Source: Candidatus Sedimenticola sp. (ex Thyasira tokunagai)
Lineage (GTDB): Bacteria > Pseudomonadota > Gammaproteobacteria > Chromatiales > Chromatiaceae
Length of the DNA: 64,000 nt
Direction of reading: 5' to 3'
Assembly (NCBI GenBank): GCA_037318855.1
Contig: CP134874.1
Coordinates: 184,598 to 248,597, forward strand
Shown here in pieces: positions 6,559 to 64,000 of the stretch. Numbering within the stretch: position 1 is the first letter of the stretch; every line of letters begins with the position of its first letter. The notes below the pieces were generated by a model. The model ran no database searches. It was not told the DNA's origin and saw nothing but the letters and a program-made list of their open reading frames with translations. A program made the position numbers and the translations under genes.

Positions 6559-7949
6559 ATAGCGTCGGCTAGTTCTTTCTCGGCCTCGGTGATTCGGAGT
6601 TGGCCGGAAAGGAGTTTGGGTAAAAGAGAATCTCTAATTTTGATAAGAGAGCCTGTTTCCTCTTGGATCAACAGTGATCTTTTGTGAAGTTCTCGAAATC
6701 GTCCCTCTGCATGACTCATCAAAACTTCACTAGGCTTAACGACTGAGTGGTTCTTGAGAATATCTGTTTTAAGGTTGGTAAAAACGCTTCCGTTTCCCTG
6801 CATAAGAAGCTCACTGCGAACAACCAAAAACAGCTGGTACAGATATAAGTCCCCATACAAAGTTTTCTCGGGGAAATAGAGCCAACCATCGTGAATGCAG
6901 GCGTCAAGATTCAAGAACATCGGGAGACCTGGGGTCGCACTATTGGAAAGGATCAATGCCCCCTTTTTTAGCATTACTGTTTTTTTCAATCCCTCTGGCT
7001 TAATGAACTGCTTTGTGCCCATCAAATAACGCGATGGACTTGCTGTAGCATCACTGATCTTTACCCATGGAAGCCCCTCATCAACCAAGTAATCATGAAT
7101 GGGCCGGGGAGAACCTCCGCGCTTAACCGTGACATAGTCTCCCAACTTCACGGGATCCCACCCCTCTGGCACCCACCCCATCTCCTCGTTGAAGACAAAG
7201 CGGTTGGGTAACTGTTTTTGAATCGCTTCGGGCAGGGGTTTGCGTTGGTCGCCAAGGGTCTTTCGCACTTCGGAGCGGGCGTGCAGGGGTTCGGGGATAG
7301 GGTTGCCTGCGGCCAGGGCGTTGTCGATGACCGGATCAAAATCGACAAACCAGCTCTTGAACAGCGCCTGCGCCATCGACTCCAGCGTGGCGTTCATCTG
7401 ACGGTTGAATTCGATTTTGTCGTCGAGGGTACCGAGGATGTGGGCGATGGATTTTTGTTCTGAAAGGCTCGGTAGACTGAACCTAAAATCCCCTAATTTT
7501 TTTACCGGGAGTCGAGCCTGATTTGCACTACCACCAGCACTATTAGCTGCATGCCATGCAAAGTCTTTTAACTTAAGCCTATAATAGAGGTAGCTCTGAT
7601 CCATTACATTTGTTAATGGAAGAATACAGCATGTGTTCTGATTTTGGATTGCTCCAACAGCATGCTTAGGGACACGCACTACTTTACCGACAACTGATGA
7701 CCAGTTTGGAGGCCACGAACCAACTGTAGCCACCACGACATCATTAAACTTTAGGTAATGGGAACTCCATTTTTTAGCGTGTTCAGGTTCAACATAGTTA
7801 CAGTCCTTCAAATCAATAGAATCAACTGTAAAGTCTGATACCCGTGCTAACGGTAACCCAGATTCAGAGAAATGCTGTTGTTTGATGCCTGCTCCGTTAC
7901 GAAGTTCTGTCACCTCATTAAGGATGACATTAGGCCACTCAACCTCCAT
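6555..7949 (-). CDS. hsdS: Type I R-M specificity subunit S
   Basis: Two TRDs with conserved regions PSLSEQKSIAHILGTLDDKI, ALFKSWFVDF, GWVPEGW, IRDSLLPKLLSG. Confidence 0.93.
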   Translation of the reverse strand: MEVEWPNVILNEVTELRNGAGIKQQHFSESGLPLARVSDFTVDSIDLKDCNYVEPEHAKKWSSHYLKFNDVVVATVGSWPPNWSSVVGKVVRVPKHAVGAIQNQNTCCILPLTNVMDQSYLYYRLKLKDFAWHAANSAGGSANQARLPVKKLGDFRFSLPSLSEQKSIAHILGTLDDKIEFNRQMNATLESMAQALFKSWFVDFDPVIDNALAAGNPIPEPLHARSEVRKTLGDQRKPLPEAIQKQLPNRFVFNEEMGWVPEGWDPVKLGDYVTVKRGGSPRPIHDYLVDEGLPWVKISDATASPSRYLMGTKQFIKPEGLKKTVMLKKGALILSNSATPGLPMFLNLDACIHDGWLYFPEKTLYGDLYLYQLFLVVRSELLMQGNGSVFTNLKTDILKNHSVVKPSEVLMSHAEGRFRELHKRSLLIQEETGSLIKIRDSLLPKLLSGQLRITEAEKELADAI

Positions 7950-9513
7950 AGCCCAACCCCGTCAAATTCTCCCGAATCACCGCATCGAGCTTTTCCGACT
8001 CAATCATCTGCCGATACAGCGTCTGACTCAGATCAGCCATCTTCTCTTCGAAGGGCACACCATCATCTTCGATCTCCGCTGCCCCGACATAGCGCCCCGG
8101 CGTCAGCACATAGTCATTGGCCTTGATCTCTTCCAGCTTAGTGGCCCGACAAAATCCCGCTACATCTTCGTATTCGCAATCCTTCTCTTCCCCCCGCCAC
8201 GCATGATAAGTGCGAGCAATCTCGGCGATGTCGTCGCTGGTCAGTTCCTTGTGAGTCCGGTCCACCATAGTGCCCATGTTGCGGGCATCGATGAACAAGG
8301 TTTCACCCTGGCGGTCGCTGTGGTTGCTGTCGGTGTGTCCTTCGACCACCTGCGCCTTTTTGTTCTTGGTGAGGAACCAAAGGCAGACCGGAATCTGGGT
8401 GGTGTAGAAGAGCTGACCTGGCAAGGCGATCATGCAGTCCACCAGATCGTTTTCGATCATCTTCTGACGGATCTCACCTTCACCCTTGGTGTTGGTGGAC
8501 ATGGAACCATTGGCCAACACAAAACCTGCCACCCCGTTCTCCGACAGCTTGGAAATCATGTGCAGTATCCAACCATAGTTGGCGTTGCCGGTGGGCGGGG
8601 TCTCGTAGCCATCCCAGCGCGGATCGTCAGTCAGTTCGGTATCTGCCCGCCACTCCTTCAGATTGAAGGGCGGGTTGGCCATGATGAAGTCGGCCTTGAG
8701 GTCTTCGTGCTGATCCTTGAAGAAGGTATCGGCGGGCACTTCACCCAGGTTGCCGGCGATGCCTCGTATGGCGAGGTTCATCTTGGCCAGTTTATAGGTG
8801 GTGCCGGTCTGCTCCTGACCGTAGATGGAGATGTCTTTGGTACTGCCCTGATGGTTCTCAACGAACTTCACCGACTGTACGAACATACCACCTGAACCAC
8901 AGCAGGGGTCGTAGATCTTGCCCTTGTAGGGTTCGATCATCTCAGCGATCAGGTTAACCACGCACTTGGGGGTATAGAACTCGCCCCCGCCCTTGCCCTC
9001 GGTGGCGGCGAACTTGCCTAGGAAGTATTCGTAGACCCGACCGACAACGTCCTCTTCCTTGTCCTCGACGGTGTCGATATTGTCAATGGAGTCGATCAGC
9101 GAAGCCAGTTTGGCCTGATCCAGCCCTAGCCGGGAGAAGTAGTTATCCGGCAGCGCACCGCGCAGGGACTTGTTGTTCTTCTCCACCGTATGCAGGGCGG
9201 TATCAATTTTGACAGCAATGTCGTCCTGCTTGGCCTGCTTCTGGATATAGGACCAGCGCGACTCCTCCGGTAGGTAAAACACGTTCTTCATGGCGTAGAA
9301 CTCCACCATGTCGATGTAGGCCTCTTGCCCCTCTGCTATCAGCTCCTTTTTACGCTCCTCAAATTTGTCGCAAGTGAACTTGAGGAATATCAGACTCAAG
9401 ACAACATGCTTGTACTCGGAGGATTCTACCGTGCCACGTAACTTGTCGGCGGTATCCCAGAGGTTTTGTTCAAAGGATTTCTGTTTCTTGGGGGCAGCAG
9501 GCTTTCTAGCCAT
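7939..9513 (-). CDS. hsdM: Type I R-M N6-adenine methyltransferase subunit M
   Basis: GEFYTPKCV, DPCCGSGGMF and NPPF motifs. Confidence 0.96.
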   Translation of the reverse strand: MARKPAAPKKQKSFEQNLWDTADKLRGTVESSEYKHVVLSLIFLKFTCDKFEERKKELIAEGQEAYIDMVEFYAMKNVFYLPEESRWSYIQKQAKQDDIAVKIDTALHTVEKNNKSLRGALPDNYFSRLGLDQAKLASLIDSIDNIDTVEDKEEDVVGRVYEYFLGKFAATEGKGGGEFYTPKCVVNLIAEMIEPYKGKIYDPCCGSGGMFVQSVKFVENHQGSTKDISIYGQEQTGTTYKLAKMNLAIRGIAGNLGEVPADTFFKDQHEDLKADFIMANPPFNLKEWRADTELTDDPRWDGYETPPTGNANYGWILHMISKLSENGVAGFVLANGSMSTNTKGEGEIRQKMIENDLVDCMIALPGQLFYTTQIPVCLWFLTKNKKAQVVEGHTDSNHSDRQGETLFIDARNMGTMVDRTHKELTSDDIAEIARTYHAWRGEEKDCEYEDVAGFCRATKLEEIKANDYVLTPGRYVGAAEIEDDGVPFEEKMADLSQTLYRQMIESEKLDAVIRENLTGLGYGG

Positions 9514-9818
9514 TGTTGTTCTATTCCTTATATATACTCAGATACGCAGATTCCCCATACCAGTACAGATTATGAGGAATTACATCTTATCGATTACTTA
9601 AATCAAAAGGAAACTGTTCAATAACCCAGACCATCAAACTCAGGGAATCCGTGATATCAAAAAATGATCTGTTAAGTAACATTGAACCGCTTAATCGAGA
9701 TATTCGTCATAAAATTCAAAGGGAATGCTCTTATTGCAGCAAAACAGAGGGTGCTTAGTAAACCCAGCAGATGATATTTATAGATAATAATGCCTCTAAA
9801 TTATTTTCCCACTGCTTT

Positions 9819-11027
9819 TTACCTAGCACGAAATAACTTCCTTACTTGGCCATTTCCGCGCAAATGACCAAATTGCTTATATCGCCCTTTATCTTCGAAA
9901 CAGAGCCGACCGGCAACAATAGCGGGGTGAATGTTGTTTCTTTGTGCAAAGGTCTGAATATCATAAGTATTGGAGAACACGGCCTGTTTCCACTCCATCG
10001 GATCTATCAGCCCAGCCTGAGCCAGGTCATCTGCCTCAAATTCAATACGGTCAAGTGCATCATGACAATCCAAGTCATCAAAAAACACCGGGTGCTCAGC
10101 ATCAAAGTGCAACATCAGGTGAGCTAATTCATGAAACAGGGTGAACCAAAAATTGTCCATTCGGTCATGACGCAGGGTGAGAGCAATCACTGGCGCACCA
10201 TCCTTACGGCTCATGACCGCACCATCCAGATATGTCTTGTCCAGATGTGGTTCCACCACCAGGAAAATCCCACGCTTTCCCAATAACTCACGTGCTAACA
10301 GCGGCCCGTTATCAAGCTGAGACAGCCCCGCCAGCTGAGTGAGCCATGGCAGATCAGGTTTAATGTACGATGCCAATGAACCTTCGGACTGTTTTAATAC
10401 CTGAGCCTGCCAGGCTAAAAGAGCAAGAGGGTCGATTAACTTGTCGTTACCACGTCGATGGGCGCTGCTACGTAAATACGCCTGAGCGGGTACTTGGGCG
10501 AACTGCTCTTCCGGCAAAAATGCTAATAAGGGACGCAGCATATCCTCTGCAAACTCTTTTAAGTACGCGCTGGTACCTTCAAATCCTGGGAAATAGCCCT
10601 TTTTATTCAGCTCATTCAGAGGAAAGGCCTGCCATTCAATATCTAACGTAGTCGGCAACTTAGCATTAGGCTCCTGAATCAGAACATCCGCCGAGATACC
10701 CAGTCCGTCAATTAGCCTCCGTATTTGTGAGAGACTAAGTGGACGCTTGCGATTAAGTACATCAGACACCCGCGATCCTGGGCCCAGGTAGCTCTGCATA
10801 TCCTTACGAGTAAGATCCATCTGATCCATACGAAACAGGATGGCATCAATCGGATCTGGCTTGTCCATGGGGTAGCACTGTTCTTCAAATTGCTGAATGA
10901 GCAGCGCTAGGACATCTAATTCATCTGCCTCTTCACTGCCTTCGATAGGGTCGAGCGACATCAACACAGCTAAGCGTTCCATGGCCTGGCAGTGGTCTTG
11001 TTCAGTTTTAATTAGTTTCATGTGCAT
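9819..11027 (-). CDS. HigA-like HTH antitoxin fused to ImmA/IrrE-type metallopeptidase domain
   Basis: HigA N-terminus (ELDVLALLIQQFEE, DPIDAILFRMDQMDL, VSDVLNRKRPLSL); C-terminal FWFTLFHELAH HExxH and EFEADDLA. Confidence 0.85.
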   Translation of the reverse strand: MHMKLIKTEQDHCQAMERLAVLMSLDPIEGSEEADELDVLALLIQQFEEQCYPMDKPDPIDAILFRMDQMDLTRKDMQSYLGPGSRVSDVLNRKRPLSLSQIRRLIDGLGISADVLIQEPNAKLPTTLDIEWQAFPLNELNKKGYFPGFEGTSAYLKEFAEDMLRPLLAFLPEEQFAQVPAQAYLRSSAHRRGNDKLIDPLALLAWQAQVLKQSEGSLASYIKPDLPWLTQLAGLSQLDNGPLLARELLGKRGIFLVVEPHLDKTYLDGAVMSRKDGAPVIALTLRHDRMDNFWFTLFHELAHLMLHFDAEHPVFFDDLDCHDALDRIEFEADDLAQAGLIDPMEWKQAVFSNTYDIQTFAQRNNIHPAIVAGRLCFEDKGRYKQFGHLRGNGQVRKLFRAR

Positions 11028-11036
11028 GACCGCCCC

Positions 11037-11333
11037 CTATAAGTTCCATTTGTCATACTCGGCATGAGTACCCACCCGTTCGATCAGCACTCGCCCTGCG
11101 CGATAACTCACTTGCACTATCAGACGAATATGATTTCCCTTAATACGAAATACTACTCGCTCACCCTTTTTTCCGAGAATACTGGCTTTGGGGAAACGAT
11201 TGGTAATGTCATGCGGTGCGGTCCAGATGCAGGTGTCACTACCAACTTCGTCATACCAAGCATCCAGAACAGCTTTTGCCTCAGAGTGTTTACGTGAGAA
11301 TTTGACGAGTTTGTCTCTTCCTATGACTTGCAT
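11037..11333 (-). CDS. higB: HigB-family mRNA interferase toxin
   Basis: 98 aa; RVVFRIKGNHIRL...VGTHAEYDKW; toxin gene precedes antitoxin. Confidence 0.88.
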   Translation of the reverse strand: MQVIGRDKLVKFSRKHSEAKAVLDAWYDEVGSDTCIWTAPHDITNRFPKASILGKKGERVVFRIKGNHIRLIVQVSYRAGRVLIERVGTHAEYDKWNL

Positions 11334-11860
11334 CTTAGTCCATTTTTACCAAAATGGTAAATATTATTTAATTACCACAATGGTAAATAACTTATCTATA
11401 TTCTTATTTAGCACAAAAATTACTTCTCACCTTATCTTACGTATGGATATAAATTCCTATCAATGAAGACGGTAATTATAATCACTACAATTCTTGATGA
11501 ATTAATATACTTGAACCATTATGCCTAACCATTATCACAGGCGCCATAAATCAAAGCTGAAAACTAAAAGCGCACATGTTGTGTCTTTCTTAAAGGAATA
11601 AAAAAAGACCCATCAGGTACTATCCGTGAGTCTTTTTCATTAAATACGCAAAAAAATCAATCTATCAGCAAACCTACCAAGATCTCATCATATAAGATTA
11701 AAGATCTCCCCTTATGTGTCAAACGACAAACTCGTAGTAAGTACTTACTTACCTAGTATCTGATAAAAAAGGCCGGATGCTATAAACACCAGCCTTTTTC
11801 ATTTAATGCGCAAAAAATCTCAATTTATGTGCAAAACGACGATTCAATAAGGATTCCATG

Positions 11861-11887
11861 AAAAAGCAGCCATTGGCTGCTTTTTTT
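11861..11887. terminator. Bidirectional intrinsic terminator
   Basis: AAAAAGCAGC-CATTG-GCTGC-TTTTTTT. Confidence 0.7.
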
Positions 11888-11989
11888 GTTAGAGCGCCAA
11901 CTATTCGGTACATATAGTAGATCTGATTCTAGGAACTGTTTCTTAAGCCACGACCAGTGATCCATTGCGGTTTTGGAAAACAGCCCAGT

Positions 11990-12019
11990 TGAACCTAGAA
12001 ACCGCAGTTTCTAGGTTGA
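11990..12019. repeat. 30-bp palindrome sharing both outer ends with the 245-bp MITE-like element
   Basis: TGAACCTAGAA-ACCGCAGT-TTCTAGGTTGA. Confidence 0.7.
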
Positions 12020-12214
12020 AGCTATGGATATATCGCACTACTAACTCTGTGGAGGTGGCTGAATAGGTGGGAAGGATTAGTAAGTGAGCGCTCACTTATC
12101 CTTTGTGCCATTGTTTTGTGATGATCGTGCTACAACCACCGAGAAGGGTTTTTCGCAAATAGGTTTGCTCCTATACCAGATAATAGGATTGAACAGCGCA
12201 CTGTAAGTGAGTAC

Positions 12215-12949
12215 CTACTTATCTTCTAGCCCATTAGCCTGTGGGAGTTGTGCAACAGTGGACTCTATCCACTCTTCCACCTGGCGATTGATTTCTGCTG
12301 CACTCAGCCCTTCAGGCTCAATCGTCGGACCGACGACGACCTGAACGGTTCCAGGATATTTTTTGATGTCTCTTCGGCGCCAGAAGATGCCGGCATTGTG
12401 GGCGATGGGTATAATCGGGAAACCGGATTTTTCCGCCAGCAGGGCACCACCTATACCGTAGCGTTTGTGCTCACCAGGTGCGACACGGGTACCTTCGGGG
12501 AAAATTACTACCAGTCGTCCCTGTTGAAGTCGCATTGTGCCGGTTTCAATCACCTGACGGACGGCTTTTCTCCCGCTCTTCCGGTCAATCATGATTGGTT
12601 GAACCAATGCCATTGCCCAACCGAAGATGGGGACCCACAATAGTTCACGCTTTGCCACCCAGGCCTGTTCAGGCGGCAGCAGGTAGCGCAGAGCCAGGGT
12701 TTCCCACGCGGACTGATGCTTCGCCAGTATGATGGCGCCACCCTGAGGAATTCTCTCCAGCCCGCTGATCTCATAATCAAGTCCACAGATAGCACCCAAG
12801 AGCTTAATATTGAGGCCACCCCAGAAATTGGCCACCCTACAACGCTGGCGGTAGGGTAGGAGTATGCCGATAATTGAGAGTGGTCCGGCAACAAAGACGA
12901 TGGTGAGAACCATAAAAAAGAAAAAAACCAGGGATCTAAGCAGTATCAT
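12215..12949 (-). CDS. plsC: 1-acyl-sn-glycerol-3-phosphate acyltransferase
   Basis: AKHQSAWET and IFPEGTR motifs; follows gmhB. Confidence 0.93.
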   Translation of the reverse strand: MILLRSLVFFFFMVLTIVFVAGPLSIIGILLPYRQRCRVANFWGGLNIKLLGAICGLDYEISGLERIPQGGAIILAKHQSAWETLALRYLLPPEQAWVAKRELLWVPIFGWAMALVQPIMIDRKSGRKAVRQVIETGTMRLQQGRLVVIFPEGTRVAPGEHKRYGIGGALLAEKSGFPIIPIAHNAGIFWRRRDIKKYPGTVQVVVGPTIEPEGLSAAEINRQVEEWIESTVAQLPQANGLEDK

Positions 12950-13505
12950 CAGTTGTATCTAACTCATTGGGTAAACGCAGCAGTGATGACACCGCTGCTC
13001 CCAGGTTATCAAACACCGGCCAGTCAGGGTTAAAACCGGGATGCAGTTCTGTGGCGGCGCCTTTACCCGTGCGTAGAAGGAGAGGTTTGGCACCTACCGC
13101 TTCGGCAGGTTCCAGGTCACGGAGACTGTCACCTATGACATAAACTTCTCTGAGATCACAGCGCAGCCGCTCACCAATCTCCAGCAACATGCCCGGCTTT
13201 GGTTTTCGGCAATCACATCCATCGGATGGACCATGAGGGCAGAAGAAAACGGCATCGATATGGCCACCGACCTGTTCCAACTCCCGGTACATTTTCTGAT
13301 GAATGGCATTAAGGGTATCGATATCAAACAGCCCCCTGGCGATACCGGACTGGTTGCTGGCAACCACGATATGGTAGCCGGCGTGGTTGAGTGCAGCGAT
13401 TGCTTCCAGGCTCCCTGCTATTGGCTGCCACTCATCCGGATGCTTGATGTACTCATCCGAATCGACATTTATGACTCCATCTCTATCAAGAATTATGAGT
13501 TTCAT
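12936..13505 (-). CDS. gmhB: D,D-heptose 1,7-bisphosphate phosphatase
   Basis: LDRDGVIN HAD motif, CPH...CDCRKPKPG. Confidence 0.95.
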   Translation of the reverse strand: MKLIILDRDGVINVDSDEYIKHPDEWQPIAGSLEAIAALNHAGYHIVVASNQSGIARGLFDIDTLNAIHQKMYRELEQVGGHIDAVFFCPHGPSDGCDCRKPKPGMLLEIGERLRCDLREVYVIGDSLRDLEPAEAVGAKPLLLRTGKGAATELHPGFNPDWPVFDNLGAAVSSLLRLPNELDTTDDTA

Positions 13506-13559
13506 TGTCGAAATTATGATATCGCCTTTATTTATGTGGACTAAAACGTAAGTGAACGC

Positions 13560-13910
13560 TTACTTATCGACGCCGCGAAACTCCGAAACCCGGATACGAC
13601 CATTCACCATCCTGGATTCACGCTGCATCAGCTTCTCCATCTTCTTCCAGAATGCCTGGTTGAGATCGAAGTCACCGGCAATGGCGGTTCCAAGCACCAG
13701 AATAAGCAAGTCGGCTACCTCTTCTGATAACTCCTCCTTATCCTTACCTTTGGTGACACAGGAGGAGATTTCACCCAGCTCCTCCGCCATCAAAGAGATA
13801 CGATAGGTCATCTCTTCGCCGCCTGTCTCTTTGAAACGGTGCTTGTCGTGAAAAGCCTGCACCGTCTCTATCATCGCCTGCCAGGAGTCGTCTCTATCAC
13901 TGCTGCTCAT
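13560..13910 (-). CDS. MazG-like nucleotide pyrophosphohydrolase
   Basis: EELGE...EEVADL motif. Confidence 0.8.
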   Translation of the reverse strand: MSSSDRDDSWQAMIETVQAFHDKHRFKETGGEEMTYRISLMAEELGEISSCVTKGKDKEELSEEVADLLILVLGTAIAGDFDLNQAFWKKMEKLMQRESRMVNGRIRVSEFRGVDK

Positions 13911-13935
13911 CGTTCAATCAATCCTATGTGGTCAA

Positions 13936-16008
13936 TTACTGGAGGCGTGATATATCGGCCACACCAAGGAAGAGCCCGCTGAGCTTATTAAGCAGGGCCA
14001 GACGGTTGGAACGTACCGCAGCATTATCTGCCATCACCATCACTTCATCGAAGAAATGGTCAACCGGCTCGCGTAGTGCGGCAAGGGCCAACAGCGTCGC
14101 CTCATAATCGTACTGCAGAAGAAGTGGTCCCACCTGTTCGCTGAGGCTGTTGATCTGAGTGAAGAGTCGCTGCTCCTCCTGCTGCTCAAACAGGCTCTCG
14201 TCGATAGTATCGGGGATCGACTCCTCTGCTTTTCTCAAGATATTGCGGATACGTTTGTTGGCCGCTGCAAGCGCTTCCGCCTCTGGGAGCTTCTCAAACG
14301 TAGCAACCGCTTCAACTCGGCGATCAAAGTCTGCAACCGACTCAGGCTTGACAGCAGCAACGGCATCATAGAATCCTACACTGATACCACGCTCCAGGTA
14401 GATTCCCTTGAGGCGCTCAAGCATGAAGTCATACACCTGATCTACCAGATCAGACGGTAGCTCTTCAACTGTCTGTGCCTCTACAGCGGCCTGCAGCAGT
14501 GAGCGTAGATTCAGGGGTAGGGCATGGTCACCCATGATGCGCAGGGCGCCCAGTGCGGCACGACGTAGCGCAAAGGGGTCTTTGTCTCCCGTCGGCTTCA
14601 TCCCGATACCGAAGATACCCACCAGTGTGTCGATTCTTTCTGCCAACGAGATGGCGATGCCTGTGGGGGTCTGAGGTAACTGGTCGCCGGAGTAACGAGG
14701 CATATAGAATTCGTTCATCGCTTCGGCAACTTCATCAGATTCACCATCACGACGGGCCTGATAGCTTCCCATGATGCCCTGCATATCAGCGAACTCAAAG
14801 ACCATCTCGGTCATCAGATCACAACGGCTGAGCTGTCCCGCCCTTTTGGCAAGCCCAACATCACCCCCGGTCTCGCCCGCAATAGTGGCGGCAAGTTTTG
14901 AAACCCGGTGAGACTTCTCATACATCGAGCCGAGCTTCTGTTGAAAGACCACCTTTTTCAGGGATTCGATATGGTCTTCCAGGCGTTTTTTGCCATCCTG
15001 GCGCCAGAAGAACATGGCGTCGCTGAGCCGTGGCCTGATGACCCGCTCATTACCCTCTTTAATCAGCTCTGGTCTGGGGCTGTCAATATTAGCGAGGGTA
15101 ATGAAGTGATTCATCAGATTTCCCTGCTTATCGAGCAGATGGAAGTATTTCTGATTCTTCTTCATAGTCAGAATCAGCGCCTCATGAGGCACTTCGAGGA
15201 AACTCTCTTCAAAGCCGGCGGCAATGGGTACCGGCCATTCCACCAGGCTGGTTACCTCGTCAAGTAGCTCCTGGTCAAAATCGACTTGGCCGCCAATGCT
15301 TTCAGCAACGCGACTAACCTGATTCTTTATCTTTGCCTGCCGTGCACTGAAGTCGGCTATGACATAACCCTTGTGCTCTAGTAGTTCGGCATACTCTTGC
15401 GGTGAGCTGATCTCGATTGCTGCGGGGTGATGGAAGCGGTGACCCCGGGTGGTGCGGCCGGCCTCTGCGTTGAGTATATTGCACTTTACCACCTGATCTC
15501 CGTGGAGAAACAGCAGCCAGTGTACCGGTCTCACAAACTGGGTCTCCAGATCACCCCAGCGCATACGTTTGGGTATTGGCAGTTTGTTGAGCGCCTCTTC
15601 GGCGATTACCGGAAGCAGTTGAGCCGCTGGTTTTCCCACCTCCTTAATCTGGTACATAAGCCACTCACCCTTATCAGTTTTAAGCCGATCTAGGCTGGCA
15701 ACTTCAGTACCACAGGAGCGGGCAAAGCCCTCGGCTGCCTTGGTGGCGTTACCCTCTTTGTCAAAAGCCGCCTGTATTGCCGGGCCACGCCGTTCCACAT
15801 CACGGTCTGGTTGGCCCAGGCTACAATTCTCAACAAGCAGCCCCAAACGGCGGGGGGCGGCGTAGGCCTTTACCGCACCGTGGCCAAGATTAGCTTTTTC
15901 CAGGCCGGCTACAAAGGAGGCGGTAAGAGCATCGGAGAGCTTTTTCAGTGCAACCGGAGGCAACTCTTCGGTGCCGAGTTCAAACAAAAGATCAGCTGAC
16001 TCAGTCAT
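13936..16008 (-). CDS. glyS: Glycyl-tRNA synthetase beta subunit
   Basis: [13 protein letters not shown]-terminus, RSNRLALL C-terminus; start taken at ATG 16008. Confidence 0.97.
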
Positions 16009-56051: not shown

Positions 56052-57437
56052 TCAAGTACCCAAAGCATCCAACGGACTTGCAACCCCCAATCCCCCCTTT
56101 TTGGTCACGTGAGTGTAGATCATAGTGGTGGCCACATCAGAGTGGCCCAATAGCTCCTGTACGGTACGAATATCTGAGCCTGATTCAAGTAGATGGGTGG
56201 CGAAGGAGTGCCTGAAGGTATGGCTGGTGACTCTTTTAGTAATTCCAGCTTCAGCTGAGGCCTTTTTGACTGCTTTTTGGATAACCGAAGGGTGAATATG
56301 GTGGCGGCGCATAATACCGCTGCGTGGGTCTTGGGCAATGCGACTGGCCGGGAAGAGATATTGCCAGCGTAGCTCCCTCTCTGCATTGGGATATTTACGT
56401 GACAGGGCTTCAGGTATCATCACGCGGCCAAAGCCATCCTGCAGATCTTTATCATGCTTCAGTTTTACCCAAGCCATCTGTTTCTGCAGTATATCGACCA
56501 TCACTTGCGGCATGGGAACAACGCGGTCTTTTTTGCCTTTAGCCATACGGATATTGATCTGCTTGTAGGCAAAGTCCAAATCCATAATGCGCAGACGAAC
56601 GCACTCCATAACCCGCATACCTGTCCCGTACATCAGGCAGATCATGAGCTTCTTCATCCCCTCTATATGAGAGAAAACCTGCTCAACCTCTTTGGGGCTC
56701 AGCACAGTGGGAATACGCCTGGGGTGTTTAGGGCGCCTAAAGGGGCCGATATCACCAAGCGGAGTCTCCAAAACACGGGCATACAGAAAGACCAGTGCAT
56801 TCAACGCCAAACTCTGGGTTGCACCCGAAACCTTGCGTTGCACGGCCAAATACTCTAAAAAGGAAGCAACTTCTCGCTCAGCGCAGCCTTGAGGAAGCGC
56901 ATTTTTATGAAATCGAAGGAAGCGATTGATCCAGTGCAAGTAAGTTTGCTCGGTACTGATGGAGTAGTCAGGTATTCGCGCTGCCGCAAGATATTTACGA
57001 AAAACGTCAGGATAATGTCTTGCGAGATCATTCTTGGGATTGCTCACCGCCTTATCAATCATCTCATAGGTTCTGGCCACAGTAGGGTGATCATTTCCGA
57101 GAGGCTGAGCACCAGACGACCAGTAGTCCCAGTCAAAATCTTTTGCCCAGGGTATCTTCAACAGGTGGCAATAGAGGAGCCGCAGCGCATCCACCCGCTG
57201 TCGATATTGCCAGGTGGAAAGTGCAGCATTGCGGCCCATGAGGTTAAACCACCGCTGCAGATTATCGGGAGTCTGCCCTTTCAGACGTGTATTCGGATGG
57301 GCATCAATGTACGCCTGTACATGTCGTCGGTACCATGGAAGCGCCTTATCCGGTACCCGAAACAACTGAACAACCTCAAGATACTGCTCCCAGAACACCG
57401 TGATATGGGGATCTTCACTCTCACTCATCGAATTCAT
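56052..57437 (-). CDS. intI: Integron integrase IntI with N-terminal extension (461 aa)
   Basis: YGTGMR, KGKKDR, HTFRHSFATHL, LGHSDVATTMIYTHV, plus the IntI-specific insert ALSRKYPNAERELRWQYLFPA. Confidence 0.96.
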   Translation of the reverse strand: MNSMSESEDPHITVFWEQYLEVVQLFRVPDKALPWYRRHVQAYIDAHPNTRLKGQTPDNLQRWFNLMGRNAALSTWQYRQRVDALRLLYCHLLKIPWAKDFDWDYWSSGAQPLGNDHPTVARTYEMIDKAVSNPKNDLARHYPDVFRKYLAAARIPDYSISTEQTYLHWINRFLRFHKNALPQGCAEREVASFLEYLAVQRKVSGATQSLALNALVFLYARVLETPLGDIGPFRRPKHPRRIPTVLSPKEVEQVFSHIEGMKKLMICLMYGTGMRVMECVRLRIMDLDFAYKQINIRMAKGKKDRVVPMPQVMVDILQKQMAWVKLKHDKDLQDGFGRVMIPEALSRKYPNAERELRWQYLFPASRIAQDPRSGIMRRHHIHPSVIQKAVKKASAEAGITKRVTSHTFRHSFATHLLESGSDIRTVQELLGHSDVATTMIYTHVTKKGGLGVASPLDALGT

Positions 57438-59452: not shown

Positions 59453-60742
59453 GGGAGTGTTAGAAATTCTGTGTCATTTCAGTAAAATTAGCAAAAATAG
59501 GAATGACACATGTCTGAACAATTCGATTTCAATAAAGCCCTGGCTGCCTTGCAGAACGGTCAAGACCTGACTGGCAAGAATGGCATCCTTACTCCACTCA
59601 TCAAGCAACTGACAGAAGCAGCTCTCAAGGCTGAACTGGAGTCACATCTCGCGCTTGATGAAGCATCAAATCGTAAGAACGGCTCCAGCAGGAAAACGAT
59701 CAAGTCAACGTCAGGAAGCTTCGATCTGGACACCCCCAGAGACCGTGCAGGCTCCTTTGAGCCACAACTGATCAAGAAGCACCAGACCCACCTGACTGAT
59801 GAGATTGAGCGCAAGATTATCTCCATGTTTGGCCTGGGAATGAGCTACCAGGATATCGCCTCACATGTTGCTGAACTCTACGGTCTGAGCATCTCCAACG
59901 CACTGATCAGCAGTGTAACTGACAAGCTCATCCCCGAGCTGAAGCAGTGGCAACAGCGCCCTCTGGAGAGCCATTACCCATTTGTCTGGCTGGATGCCAT
60001 CCACTACAAGGTCAAAGAGGATGGACGCTATGGCAGCAAGGCCGTCTACACCGTGCTGGGCCTGAACCTGGAGGGCAAGAAGGAGATACTCGGCCTCTAT
60101 CTCTGAAAGTGAAGGAGCTAACTTTTGGCTATCGGTACTGACTGATCTCAGTAATCGCGGTATAGAGGATATCCTGATTGCCTCTGTCGATGGACTGAAA
60201 GGCTTTCCAGAGGCCATTAACAGCATCTTTCCTGATACAGAGGTTCAGCTCTGCGTGATACACCAGATCCGCAACTCGATGAAGTACGTTGCCTCTAAGA
60301 ATCAGAAAGCCTTTATGGCCGATCTAAAGCCCGTCTACAAGGCAGTGAACAAGGAGGCGGCAGAGGCGGCGCTGGGCGAGCTGGAGAGTCGCTGGGGCGC
60401 CCAGTACCCAATCGTACTCAAGTCGTGGCGCAGCAAGTGGGAAAATCTATCTGTCTACTTCAAATACCCTGCGGACATCCGTCGCGTGGTTTACACCACC
60501 AATGCCATTGAGGCTGTACATCGGCAGTTCCGTAAGCTGACCAAAACCAAGGGCCTTCCCGAATGAAAACAGCCTCATGAAGCTGCTCTATATGGGAATC
60601 CAGAATGCTTCAAAGAAATGGACCATGCCGATTCAGAACTGGAATTTGACTCTGTCCCAGTTGTCGATATATTTTGAAGGCCGGTTAGATGGCGTTTTGG
60701 ATATTTAACCGATTAGGCTGACACAGAATTCTGAACGCCCTC
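59453..60742 (+). mobile_element. IS256-family insertion sequence, 1290 bp
   Basis: IRs GGGAGTGTTAGAAATTCTGTGTCA / GAGGGCGTTCAGAATTCTGTGTCA; 8-bp flanks CTAGGAGA / CTAGGACA. Confidence 0.92.
59510..60708 (+). pseudogene. IS256 (Mutator) transposase, two 2-nt deletions
   Basis: VWLDAIHYKV, SVDGLKGF, QLCVIHQIRNS, YTTNAIEA in successive frames. Confidence 0.9.
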
Positions 60743-60958
60743 CTAGGACATTTTAAAGCGTGGTTTCTTTTGTGTAATTACGCTACGATATCATTCTACA
60801 CAATAGAAACTACGCTTTAAAATGCCTGTTATTGGCGACGTTGATGTAAGCTCGGTATTTTTGAGCTTTGATCTCAGTTGATTGTATTAGCCAATTCTTA
60901 CTGCCTACTTGGTCGCACTGCTGGCCCATTGATCTGACACTGAATGTCAGATCAGGTC

Positions 60959-61150
60959 TTAGTTACTACAGCTCATGCCGTGCTCAGCGAATTCCTTAAT
61001 GGCTTCTTCTGGCCATCCCACGCGCCCTTTGCTAATCGGTATCTTCTTGGGAAATTCACCTTTCGCCTCCTGGCGGTAAATGGTTGCCCGGCTTAACCCC
61101 GTTATCTCAATAACTTGCTTGATATTCAGTATTTTTTTCATATCTCTCAT
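60959..61150 (-). CDS. AlpA-family transcriptional regulator (antisense, cassette 4)
   Basis: KQVIEITGLSRATIYR...GEFPKKIPI...RVGW. Confidence 0.9.
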   Translation of the reverse strand: MRDMKKILNIKQVIEITGLSRATIYRQEAKGEFPKKIPISKGRVGWPEEAIKEFAEHGMSCSN

Positions 61151-61208
61151 GCCTAACTAGTTGCTGTTTCTGACCTCGCTGCGCTCGGCAGCAAAGCTAG
61201 TTCGTTAG
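61151..61208 (+). other. attC site 4 (short, ~60 bp) interrupted in R' by a group II intron
   Basis: GCCTAAC-TAGTT-GCTGTTTC-TGACC..GGCA-GCAAAGC-TAGTTC-GTTA; unpaired bases lie on the left arm, giving + orientation. Confidence 0.8.
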
Positions 61209-62312
61209 CGCGCCAAGCGAAGCTTGGTGCATCTTGCAGGGTGAAAGTCCCTGTCGGGTAAGGATTAGCCACCCACCCGTATTGAGTGTTGCGCTTGTGG
61301 CGGAGTGCGGGGAGAGCAAGCGCTTTCCAGTTACTGGATGACTATCCACTGACCACCGCATGAACAAAACAGGTGAAGCGTACACAGCGAATCGTATAGG
61401 CCATAGGGTGTCCGCGCACCTGAGAGCTGGAATCGCCTCGACATAAATAACTGTTCCGAGTGATGAGAGCTGTAACGTACTCGAAATCCAAGTGAAGCAA
61501 CCGAGTTGGCAAGGTTGTGGAGACTCGGCGGGGTTCTCAAGCTGTGGCATGTACGAAGAGATGTATCGAGAACTTGGGAGACCCTAATGGTTCCCGGCAA
61601 AGTGCCGGGTAGGGAAGCCAAGCCGAAAGGTGAGGCGCTGCTGGTAAGGTATGCAGATGATTTTGTCTGTGCGTTTCGCTACCGAGAGGACGCGGAGCGA
61701 TTTTACCGGACACTGCCGAAACGATTGGGTAAGTTTGGATTGGAGCTATCACCAGAGAAGACCCGGTTAATACGATTCAGTCGTTTCCATCCCGGTGGAA
61801 AACGGCGGATCTGTTTTTGGGCTTTGAACTGTACTGGGGGCATGATCGCCAAAGGCGACCTCGCCTACACCGGAGAACGGCAAAGAAGAAGTTGGTGCAG
61901 GCGGTCAAAGGGATGGGGAGTGGATTAAGCAGTTTCGCCACCTCCCACTGGCTGACTTCCGCATTGCACTGAATCGCCGCCTCCGGGGGCACTATCAATA
62001 CTTTGGATTGATAGGTAACAGTCGGCAGGTATGGCTTTACTACAAGGAAGTGATCGAACGTGTTTATAAGTGGCTGAACAGGCGAAGCCAAAGACGGAGC
62101 TACACTTGGGTGGGGTTAAATGAGATGCTGAGGCAACAGGGAATCCTGAAGCCGGAAGTAAGGAAGCTTAACTTCCCCAGGACATACCTGATATATGAAT
62201 AGGGACTCCAGCATTGCGCGGGAGTGAGTATTACTGAGGAGCCGGATGCGGTAGTACCGCACGTCCGGATCTGCATGGGGGCGCTTTGGGTAACCGGGCG
62301 TCCTACCATTAC
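61208..62312 (+). mobile_element. Group II intron A (IIB, class E-like), internally deleted for RT0-4
   Basis: 5' GCGCGCC...GGGTGAAAGTCCC, domain I end GAACTTGGGAGACCC, RT remnant LVRYADDF..LSPEKTRLIRF..WLNRRSQR, DV GAGCCGGATGCGGTAGTACCGCACGTCCGGATC (62239-62271), 3' CTACCATTAC. Confidence 0.88.
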
Positions 62313-62528
62313 GTTCGCTGGTTTATGCGTAAGCACAAAGCGATTAGGCGCAGTAAAATGCGTGCGATGGCGCTTTTTGCCCGATGCATGAAGGAAAGCC
62401 CCGGTTTGTTTGTTCACTGGCGTGAGGGGATGAAAGGTGCGTATGCTTGATGGGAGCGGTATGAGCGGAGACGTTCACGTACCGTTCTGCGAGAGGCTGA
62501 GGGTGAGAGTCCCTTGGTCTACTCTCCT
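62313..62528 (+). mobile_element. 3' fragment of a second group II intron B (class D-like maturase tail + DV/DVI)
   Basis: VRWFMRKHK...PGLFVHW..stop at 62450; DV GAGCGGTATGAGCGGAGACGTTCACGTACCGTTC at 62454; DVI ending CTACTCTCCT. Confidence 0.82.
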
Positions 62529-62549
62529 CCCAAAATCTTTCACTAGGTT

Positions 62550-62960
62550 GAAACTCACTTGGTCACCCACGAGCTCCTCGGGAGGCCCTTGCGGCTACGA
62601 TAGGACGCCACGGTACTTGGCCAGCAACCGATCAATATCAGCATTCCACAGCGCCCACGACTCCTTCGGGAGGCCCTTGCGGGTACGATAGGTCGACACA
62701 GTAGATGAGCGCTCGATACCCAGCATCCGAGCAATCTCAGGATTCGTCATCGACTGCCATTGCTCGTCGGTTACAGAATCCCAGTCATACTTGGTCGCCT
62801 TCGGGGCGCTCGGGAGGCCCTTGCGGGTACGATAGGTCGACACAGCAGATGAGCCCTCGATACCCAGCATCCGAGCAATCTCAGGATTCGTCATCGACTG
62901 CCATTGCTCGTCGGTTACAGAACTCCAGTCATGCTTCGCCCTTACGGGGGGTTTATTCAT
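62550..62960 (-). CDS. Tandem HTH-like repeat protein (two 48-aa repeats plus a frameshifted third)
   Basis: 144-bp DNA repeat; NPEIARMLGI..STVSTYRTRKGLP twice; third VASYRSRKGLP out of frame. Confidence 0.65.
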
Positions 62961-63104
62961 ATTTGGGCACTTTCCTCAAAACCGGTAACCCTATCTTTTT
63001 CACGAGGATGTGCCAGATAAGGTCTGAACTAATACAATACAGTCAGGCGAATTGCTTGCCAAAGGGTTCTCTCTATTCGAGTTATCCACCCCTATCCAAG
63101 CGAG

Positions 63105-63243
63105 CGCTGCCAGCCATGGAGAGCGAAGCGAAGGAGTAGCTCCTCTGTAATAATCCAACCCGTTACAGCAACTTCCACCACCCAAAAGTGATTTATTCTG
63201 AATCGGTTTCAGTCGCTGCCAGCCATGGAGAGCGAAGCGAAGG
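63105..63243 (+). repeat. Two perfect 30-bp direct repeats
   Basis: CGCTGCCAGCCATGGAGAGCGAAGCGAAGG at 63105 and 63214. Confidence 0.9.
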
Positions 63244-63496
63244 CTGGTAATCCCCGGTAGCCGTGAGGCCGCACTGCTTACCCGTCGTGCGCGTAGCGCG
63301 CCAGAGGGGAAGCAAAGTAGGCATCCGAACACGGCGTCCAGTCACTGGGAACTGACTGCGAAGCGGTAACGAGCTTGCGATGTTATCGCGTAGCGGTCAG
63401 TGACCAGGACGGCCGGGGCACTAATAGGCTGTCAAAGATTGAGTGCAAAAGGGGGACTTGGATGTCCTGTTTTGCATCACGAAATCGAAGACTCGC

Positions 63497-63907
63497 TTAT
63501 TCGTTTTCGTTTTTTGCTGCTTCCTCTGCTGCCTTCTTGTTGTTTTTCACGGCTTTTCTAAGCGCCCCTTGCAGAGACCTGATGCTGGCTCTTACTTTCT
63601 CGACCTGCTCGTCTGAGACCACCTGTCCTACCTCCAGGGCCTCGGTGATCCGATCCACAGTATAGTGGGCATGATTAACAGCCATCGCGCGACTATGGGC
63701 CTTCTCTTTGTCTTTCTGGTCTGTCAGCCAGCCCTCGACCTGGGCGGCCTCTTCATCGGTCAGGTGCTCGCGCACATGGGCTGGGATTGAAGTATTCCCG
63801 GTCGGGAACCCAGCGATCATTTTTTGAGTGCTGCGCTTCTTCTCCGGGAGATAGATAGAGCGGAGAAGCTGAACCCTTGAGCCTTTAACCTTGATTTGTA
63901 TAGTCAT
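63497..63907 (-). CDS. Hypothetical protein of mobile-element type
   Basis: 136-aa ORF with AAAGG RBS (RVQLLRSIYLPEKKRS); function not recognised. Confidence 0.7.
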   Translation of the reverse strand: MTIQIKVKGSRVQLLRSIYLPEKKRSTQKMIAGFPTGNTSIPAHVREHLTDEEAAQVEGWLTDQKDKEKAHSRAMAVNHAHYTVDRITEALEVGQVVSDEQVEKVRASIRSLQGALRKAVKNNKKAAEEAAKNENE

Positions 63908-64000
63908 ACCCTTTTATGAAAATTCGTCATACTCATATAATAAATGACCAGACGTATCCTATCAAGAGTTGTCGTCATTGCATTATCTGGTTGCTGGTCA

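Follow-up and report, generated by a model that had tools for sequence, protein, structure and literature searches.

A group II intron in an attC site is joined to the tail of a second intron, a probable split remnant of a twintron in Candidatus Sedimenticola sp. (ex Thyasira tokunagai)

How integron cassettes are assembled, and how arrays take up DNA that is not a cassette, is an old open question, and the proposal that introns take part in it has rested mostly on intron positions. Leon and Roy are said to have put forward, in J Bacteriol in 2009, a route of cassette genesis for the IIC-attC group II introns. Class C introns typically carry a CGC triad in domain V (DV). The IIC-attC introns, S.ma.I2 and its relatives, insert in the bottom strand, opposite to cassette transcription, and have been proposed to join genes to attC sites (PMC3001079). 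Group IIB introns were described beside attC sites in hypersaline integrons and in clusters of attC sites lacking integron integrases (CALINs), namely UHB.I2 and H.ha.F1/F2 (PMC7923331). In Methanosarcina, introns home into the open reading frames (ORFs) of other introns, and this nesting is balanced by deletions via homologous recombination (PMC4424553). Here we describe a 64,000-nt stretch (the window, G000:C1:184598-248597; contig CP134874.1, assembly GCA_037318855.1) of the single-contig 4.56-Mb genome (99% completeness) of Candidatus Sedimenticola sp. (ex Thyasira tokunagai), in which the last attC site of an integron array, attC4, is occupied by a group II intron, A, whose 3' end is followed directly by the tail of a different intron, B. 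Genome coordinates carry the prefix g, a slash marks a junction, and the X-numbered public runs consist of short contigs of related, non-identical strains, in which rare forms are dropped.

The hybrid joint is best read as the split remnant of a twintron. A complete nest, with the inner intron between both parts of the outer one, was not found in the genome: the window holds the outer 3' part only, and the B head and the B tails stand at different joints. We consider it probable, though by no means assured, that the hybrid joint arose by recombination between dispersed copies of A, one of which was nested in B.

A second locus, at 1.313-1.328 Mb, shows both sides of such an exchange. In the sister genome G003 the sequence ending at g1313111 runs directly into that beginning at g1328247 (...GGCCGTTG/GGGATAGGGG...), and the site at g1313112, behind the stop codon of a chromosomal gene, is empty. 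The studied genome has 15.1 kb exactly between those points, with a deleted A joined to a B tail and flank2 at the left end and a B head joined to a full-length A at the right end. The empty joint was detected at full depth in contigs of X6 and the occupied joint in X5 and X7. Reciprocal joints together with an empty site are the mark left when an ordinary A insertion recombines homologously with a B-nested A. The integration of a circle carrying the B(A) twintron into a resident A, or an equivalent exchange, would give the 15.1-kb layout. The insert contains insertion sequence (IS) copies and three IS91-like elements, which make circular intermediates and could have supplied the circle that recombined with A. 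The three IS91-like (rolling-circle type) transposase gene copies occupy positions 7535-14818 of this locus (L010; g1318534-1325817), and the last one abuts the B head, with its end 208 nt short of A. The preliminary description of the window had proposed that recombination between A copies deleted everything between an attC copy and a twintron copy; the recombination is seen directly at this pair, whereas the picture of a one-off deletion did not hold, the unit being present four times.

Each of the five A copies adjoins B, four as A/B-tail and one as B-head/A (Table 1). The A/B-tail unit (1328 nt) is 99-100% identical between loci, while the flanks are about 95% identical or unrelated, and every copy has a different 5' flank. 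Because the four copies stand behind four different 5' flanks, the unit appears, from the sequence comparison, to have formed elsewhere or earlier and then spread. Contigs in X1, X3, X5, and X7 cover the A/B-tail joint, and contigs in X1 and X9 cover the joint between the B tail and its flank. X9 has no A/B-tail joint and about five B tails, all with an uninterrupted head. The exact A/B-tail joint had no match in 185,579 species genomes or in the metagenome collection. Two of the 5' flanks, "hairpin3" (n=3) and "hairpin4" (n=6), are the attC sites of recurring cassettes with a common cassette body 5' of A, and their copies diverge directly after GTTA, as is classic for a cassette boundary. Cassettes of identical sequence, attC included, were observed at distant sites (g2807925, g4468248, g4077243, g2710153, g2045594, and g3914814; g290491, g3908926, and g263241) with differing neighbours. 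Given the single intI, many attC clusters of this genome are without an integrase.

Table 1. Features of the hybrid junction in the window and joints between introns A and B in the genome (nt, nucleotides; RT, reverse transcriptase; EBS1, exon-binding site 1; D1, domain 1; DV/DVI, domains V and VI).
Feature	Position	Strand	Description or evidence
Integron integrase intI	56052..57437	-	TIGR02249, Pfam, tblastn
attC4, final attC of the array, 5' exon of intron A	61151..61207	+	Sequence, fold
Group II intron A, non-autonomous copy, 1105 nt (full-length copies 1974-1977 nt)	61208..62312	+	RF02005; ends from relatives; alignment with full-length copies
Candidate EBS1 UAACG in D1 hairpin loop	61473..61477	+	Rfam alignment, motif scan, 5'-exon consensus
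869-nt deletion scar	61626..61636	+	Between two copies of AAAGGTGAGGC; deletion also in g1313112 and g263240
Remnant of A protein, YADD motif to X domain (RT5-X), frameshifted	61637..62202	+	Translation; TIGR04416 on full-length copies
DV/DVI of intron A, AGC triad, 3' end ...CCTACCATTAC	62237..62312	+	RF00029; 3' ends in relatives
Last 45 codons and stop of B maturase	62313..62450	+	BLASTP; uninterrupted NKTL/VRW at g286837
DV/DVI of B and last bases common to five B tails (...CTACTCTCCTCCCAAAA)	62452..62535	+	RF00029; five-copy alignment
flank1, downstream context of B	62536..64000	.	Same flank at g286837 (no A) and g3912617 (full-length A), ~95% identity
A/B-tail copy, A deleted (869 nt)	window	+	5' flank attC4
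A/B-tail copy, A with 869-nt deletion	g1313112	+	5' flank end of chromosomal gene
A/B-tail copy, A with 869-nt deletion and a further 43-nt deletion	g263240	-	5' flank attC "hairpin3"
A/B-tail copy, A full-length	g3914813	-	5' flank attC "hairpin4"
Reciprocal joint B-head/A, A full-length	g1326270		5' side B head, 3' side unrelated DNA

Directly 3' of A, 45 codons (62313-62447, VRWFMRKHK...GAYA, starting GTT CGC TGG; stop at 62448-62450) correspond along their full length to the C-terminus (residues 385-429) of a 429-aa intron protein without an endonuclease domain (En-less; BLASTP E 2e-9). This homologue reads NKTL/VSW at the junction codons and has the same layout as B, where the stop lies 1 nt before DV. 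The DV/DVI of B (62452-62527) matches RF00029 with 57.2 bits. The junction reported from the letters alone, with A ending at 62312 and followed by in-frame VRW codons and a second DV/DVI, is confirmed by Rfam, by the intron ends in relatives and by BLASTP, as is the absence of the 5' half of B. The window lacks the B 5' part and the genome has no complete B, only five tails (at least 98% identical as far as window position 62535) and one 208-nt head. Homologues of B match RF01999 in D1-D4, are without the En domain, and occur at about 50% identity in other bacterial classes.

We detected the homing site of A in B from two further loci. The full-length A at g1326270 is preceded by B maturase sequence ending ...AIIRHVNKTL (AAGACGTTG/, that is AAG ACG TTG/), and the uninterrupted B at g286837 reads AAGACCTTG/GTTCGCTGG (AAG ACC TTG/GTT CGC TGG), NKTL/VRW. 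A 7-bp hairpin lies just upstream of the A site in the B head. The earlier proposal that A had homed into B at the predicted codons is supported by both loci, except that the site is CG TTG/GTT and not the TTA/GTT that had been expected; reading the bases 5' of the VRW codons, the check then suggested, gives ACGTTG in the B head and ACCTTG in the uninterrupted B. The further claim that the B site fits the same EBS1, with G at +1, agrees with the candidate UAACG loop, in which the U would pair with A or G at -1.

After a B tail comes always flank1 (in the window, at g3912617, and at g286837) or flank2 (at g1314433 and g261953), never the rest of an attC. Flank1 also stands behind the A-free B (g286837) and runs for more than 2 kb to a toxin-antitoxin cassette and hairpin3, and both flanks were seen in X9, the run without any A/B-tail joint. 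What follows each B tail is native to B. In the window flank1 comprises a tandem helix-turn-helix (HTH)-repeat gene (-), a 136-aa ORF (-), and one inserted repeat of ~290 nt. Flank2 behind the g263240 copy was searched for a terminal attC, and nothing clear emerged.

The 5' exon of A is an attC, as had been claimed: attC4 lies downstream of intI, its R'' is GCCTAAC (61151-61157), the L'' and L' arms are paired, and R' is GTTA (61204-61207), cut after the A, so that the R' core GTTA/G is occupied by intron A. The intI gene is intact and matches TIGR02249 with 442.5 bits (cutoff 265) as well as Pfam Phage_integrase and Phage_int_SAM_4; by tblastn it is the single integron integrase genome-wide, and a short cassette array lies beyond it on the plus strand. 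The attC4/A joint is covered by a 341-nt contig in X23 and X24, in which the cassette and attC4, as a minor variant with 97% identity, run into the first 25 bases of A. In X6 an uninterrupted attC4 was detected, reading ...CGTTAG/GAGTTTTAC... (...CGTTAG/GAGTTTTACAATTCC...), and the next cassette (GGAGTTTTAC...) is absent from the studied genome. The array continued further in relatives, and A/B-tail/flank1 stands in its place here. The search for a longer array in relatives, which the preliminary description had suggested, succeeded in X6, where attC4 is followed by another cassette, and failed in the same-genus genomes, all four of which lack the AlpA cassette, attC4, and the window's empty site. 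The depth of the attC4 region is near zero in most runs, and 60972-61207 is at full depth in none. Contigs of most runs track the window to 60970 and continue into different DNA (CATAAAGATAGTTAAAATC...). The AlpA gene and attC4 represent a minority or strain-specific right half of cassette 4, and a variant diverged by about 3% is present at 12-15% depth in X23 and X24.

The D1-D4 core of A matches RF02005 at 61244-61543 (85.2 bits, Rfam gathering score 49), and its DV/DVI matches RF00029 with 40.4 bits, just at the gathering score of 40; DV starts GAGCCGG. The ends of A were placed from the A-family introns of relatives, in which the 5' exon ends ...CGTTA/, the intron starts G(T/A/C)GCGCC, and the 3' end is ...CCTACC(N)4-5/. 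The termini of A, GCGCG at the 5' end (GUGCG in relatives) and ...AC at the 3' end, follow the GUGYG-like and AY pattern of group II introns. The intron-encoded RT/maturase was detected with TIGR04416 in the full-length A copies (E 4e-64 and 1e-18), of which the genome has two, one of them needing a single extra T in a T-run for an open frame. The window copy lacks RT domains 0-4 and is unable to move alone. All public contigs have an additional T after 61813 (T-run) and an additional G after 61914 relative to the assembly, and the added T would open the intron protein of the full-length copy g3912840-3914813; these differences are either homopolymer errors of the assembly or real differences between copies.

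The UAACG loop probably pairs with CGTTA, and with CGTTG via U-G. Every 5' exon of the A family has GTTR at its end, in most cases as CGTTR, and the known 3' exons start with G almost throughout (one starts with A). Relatives carry A-family introns in the same ...CGTTA/ context in attC-like hairpins, and in one of them the exons rejoin to GTTA/GCGG, complementary to R'' of its site, CCGCTAAC. The normal target of A is the attC R' core. In a related genus (L025, G010:C188) two A-family introns stand head to tail (...CCTACCGTGAT/GTGCGCCAAGCG...), an arrangement showing that a second insertion at one attC can take the first G of the resident intron as its +1 base. The contig depth over A and the B tail is 40-70x that of single-copy neighbours in X1-X8 and X23-X25, runs labelled RNA or of unstated type, and only 1-5x in X9. 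RNA is also the probable source of the runs of unstated type. A is an abundant RNA, much of which carries the B head found upstream of A at g1326270.

A resembles the IIC-attC introns in being En-less and in using an attC hairpin as 5' exon with a short intron-binding site 1 (IBS1), which was found at attC4 and at two other copies. Unlike them, A stands on the top strand at R' (GTTA/G) in the sense of the cassette ORFs, opposite to intI and not in the bottom strand, has an AGC triad in DV, and matches RF02005 in D1-D4. Among reverse transcriptases in the PDB the A protein matches LtrA (1e-30) and GsI-IIC (5e-30), a comparison that does not separate the classes. A is an attC-targeting intron of the cassette-sense strand and probably not of class C. 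Like UHB.I2, it is an En-less, probably non-IIC intron placed directly after an attC in cassette orientation (PMC7923331). The 5'-truncated H.ha.F1/F2, consisting of a partial ORF and DV/DVI behind attC-like hairpins, resemble the B tail; their truncation was ascribed to incomplete reverse transcription, whereas the B tail here is preceded by a complete second intron, A, and its truncation point is the homing site of A (PMC7923331).

The favoured history, recombination between A copies, would run as follows. En-less A would home into the attC R' core (hairpin and CGTTR/G) on the cassette-gene strand, and would also have inserted at a look-alike site in the ORF of En-less B, a short hairpin and ACGTTG/GTTCGC (T-L/V-R-W), giving a twintron. 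The dispersed A copies, 1.1-2 kb long and 99-100% identical, would provide portable homology, and an A at an ordinary site and the B-nested A could then exchange flanks, producing "ordinary 5' exon/A/B-tail" and "B-head/A/ordinary 3' exon". The window would hold one of four products of the first type, with attC4 as the ordinary 5' exon, and DNA native to the downstream side of B would thereby take the place of the next cassette in the array. By analogy with the second locus, the window's own copy would derive from such a recombination, either local or preceding a transfer, with loss of the downstream cassettes.

Several observations weigh against this history. The window itself has neither a reciprocal product nor a sister genome with the empty site, the local event being argued by analogy, and the linkage across attC4, A, the B tail, and flank1 is composed of joints covered singly by short contigs, with the long range taken from the assembly. 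Four hybrid joints stand against one reciprocal, requiring several recombinations in which the other product was lost, or a later spread by another route. The similar number of B tails in X9, where all are uninterrupted, and in the studied genome (about five and five) hints that heads were replaced on four separate occasions. The B heads at g1326173 and g286740 are 13% diverged from each other and the tails differ by at most 2% (p = 0.001), with the jump in divergence exactly at the A site, a contrast that a simple one-twintron history does not predict.

The rival that survives best, although we regard it as unlikely, is that A/B-tail was made once elsewhere and that TTA/A/B-tail/flank1, up to the next attC, travelled as one large cassette, with the IntI crossover at G/TT 3 nt upstream of A. 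The 5' joint in the window would then be an integrase product and not the result of homing or of A-by-A recombination at attC4, which we likewise doubt. The 5' flanks of two other copies, being attC sites of recurring cassettes that diverge exactly after GTTA, suggest active cassette shuffling, the unit at g3914813-3908926 spans from attC hairpin4 to attC hairpin3 behind the toxin-antitoxin cassette, and intI is intact and adjacent. However, such a transfer gives no account of the pair at 1.313/1.328 Mb, whose right end is the 3' end of A and not an attC, and a first recombination would still be needed for attC/A/B-tail; in the window, moreover, the far end of the unit is a pile of IS elements, not an attC. 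The GTTR boundary is predicted by both models and the sequence favours neither. At attC4, local recombination with loss of DNA and IntI transfer of a ready-made unit would result in the same GTTA boundary.

A second possibility, which we consider very unlikely, is break repair during homing: after partial reverse splicing into the B site, whose ACCTTG copies allow only imperfect IBS1 pairing, repair from an attC/A template would copy the donor 5' exon. Hybrids would then be formed repeatedly and without reciprocals, in agreement with the four hybrids and one reciprocal, with the five B tails of both X9 and the studied genome, and with the divergence jump exactly at the A site; the 5' flank at g263241-263584 is only 344 nt long, stops at a high-copy repeat, and matches two other copies at 100% identity. 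The co-conversion of 5' exons by yeast mitochondrial introns resembles this scheme, and we know of no such mechanism documented for bacterial En-less introns. Direct evidence for it was not found, and the pair at 1.313/1.328 Mb is reciprocal and better explained by plain recombination.

It is highly improbable that the unit is one chimeric intron, composed of D1-D4 of A and DV/DVI of B, which uses a downstream alternative 3' splice site and retrohomes into attC. Two DV/DVI modules do lie 215 nt apart behind one D1-D4, the unit is far more uniform between loci than its flanks, the A/B-tail joint is about as deep as the A body in the RNA contigs, and precedents exist in the repeated DV/VI of C.te.I1 and the 3' extension of B.c.I4 (PMC4424553, PMC3919590, PMC1865049). 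However, the remainder of the target is never what follows the unit: the 3' exon GGGGTAGGGG of g1313112 is 15 kb away behind another A, and the other three loci have the native flank1 or flank2, of which flank1 also follows an A-free B. The absence of the exact joint from the species genomes and the metagenome collection also speaks against one mobile intron, and no spliced joint was found in the RNA contigs (X5-X8; rare forms are dropped in contigs). Retrohoming of A and the B tail as one unit was rejected, since the 3' flanks are B's native flanks and the true 3' exon of g1313112 is 15 kb off. The likeness to C.te.I1 (PMC3919590) and B.c.I4 (PMC1865049) consists in one D1-D4 followed by two 3' modules; here, unlike in those introns, the second module comes from a different intron family, the unit was not inserted as one intron, and no alternative splice product was seen in the RNA contigs.

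A misassembly of repeat copies, by which attC4, A, the B tail, and flank1 would not be contiguous in the cell, is hardly credible: the genome is very rich in repeats and contains every one of these parts five times, the runs are short contigs of non-identical strains, and attC4 depth is near zero in most of them, but each joint is present in independent contigs, the assembly is a single contig of high completeness, and three further loci with unique flanks show these joints, one having been compared with G003.

Returning to recombination between A copies, the comparison with described systems suggests a variant and not a new kind of system, and one that is directly testable in the laboratory. 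Homing into intron ORFs with subsequent trimming, attC-targeting introns, and non-IIC or truncated introns at attC sites have all been described; new here is their combination, with the evidence well preserved. As in the nests of Methanosarcina acetivorans, an intron homed into the maturase ORF of another and recombination between copies reshaped the nest, with host genes unaffected (PMC4424553). Unlike those nests, the main target of A is the attC R' core, the array, and at the second locus the end of a chromosomal gene, became joined to the surroundings of the outer intron, and the reciprocal joints and the empty site are preserved at the second locus. The genome is a natural, internally controlled example of the key step of the intron proposal, namely the joining of an attC or a gene end to DNA unrelated to it through recombination between copies of an intron that homes into attC sites; one locus combines both reciprocal joints, the empty site of a sister genome, and presence/absence variation between sibling samples. 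It also indicates that an intron ORF can mimic the attC R' core.

The parallel with the Leon-Roy model of cassette genesis, drawn in the preliminary description, holds as an analogy for one step, the recombination of intron copies, and not further, with no new cassette seen and A differing from a canonical IIC-attC intron. As in that model and among IIC-attC introns, a copy of A is found also behind the end of an ordinary gene (g1313112), and recombination between copies would join an attC to unrelated DNA, the step that the model requires. In contrast to the intermediate of the model, the joins here are of attC to B flank and of gene to B flank, not of gene to attC. An intron-free gene-attC cassette was not seen among the contig joints, and the search was confined to those joints. 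We tentatively suggest, as a doubtful but conceivable extension, that A copies act as portable homology that brings circular or foreign DNA (e.g., the products of IS91-like elements) into arrays and gene ends, that this route is active now in the population, and that the excess of hybrid joints reflects a repeated, possibly homing-coupled process. Present activity is proposed because attC4 and the 1.313-Mb site are both still empty in one sibling sample (X6).

Other mobile and repeated sequences were detected around the junction. An IS256-family element (59457-60745) lies inside attC3, with the transposase split into several frames (59510-60106 and 60255-60566), and has six near-identical copies elsewhere. 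The ~290-nt repeat inserted in flank1 (63213-63499) recurs just past the window end (64003-64292) and at more than 100 other places of the genome; it forms two subfamilies with about 81% similarity between them. Over its left 125 nt the repeat is 82% identical to the stretch immediately 5' of the B remnant (g286396-286520), and over its right 25 nt it shares 22 of 25 positions with the bases that directly follow the B tail in flank2; the repeat is either a homing target of B or a descendant of a B-type intron. Rfam gave no match for the repeat or for the 5' part of the A-free B. Tandem units of ~145 bp in flank1 encode HTH-like motif repeats (KYDW.SVTDEQWQSMTNPEIARMLGIE...YR.RKGLP) on the minus strand at 62560-62960, g287060-288460, and g3911300-3912600, with two units in the window and about eight at g287 kb.

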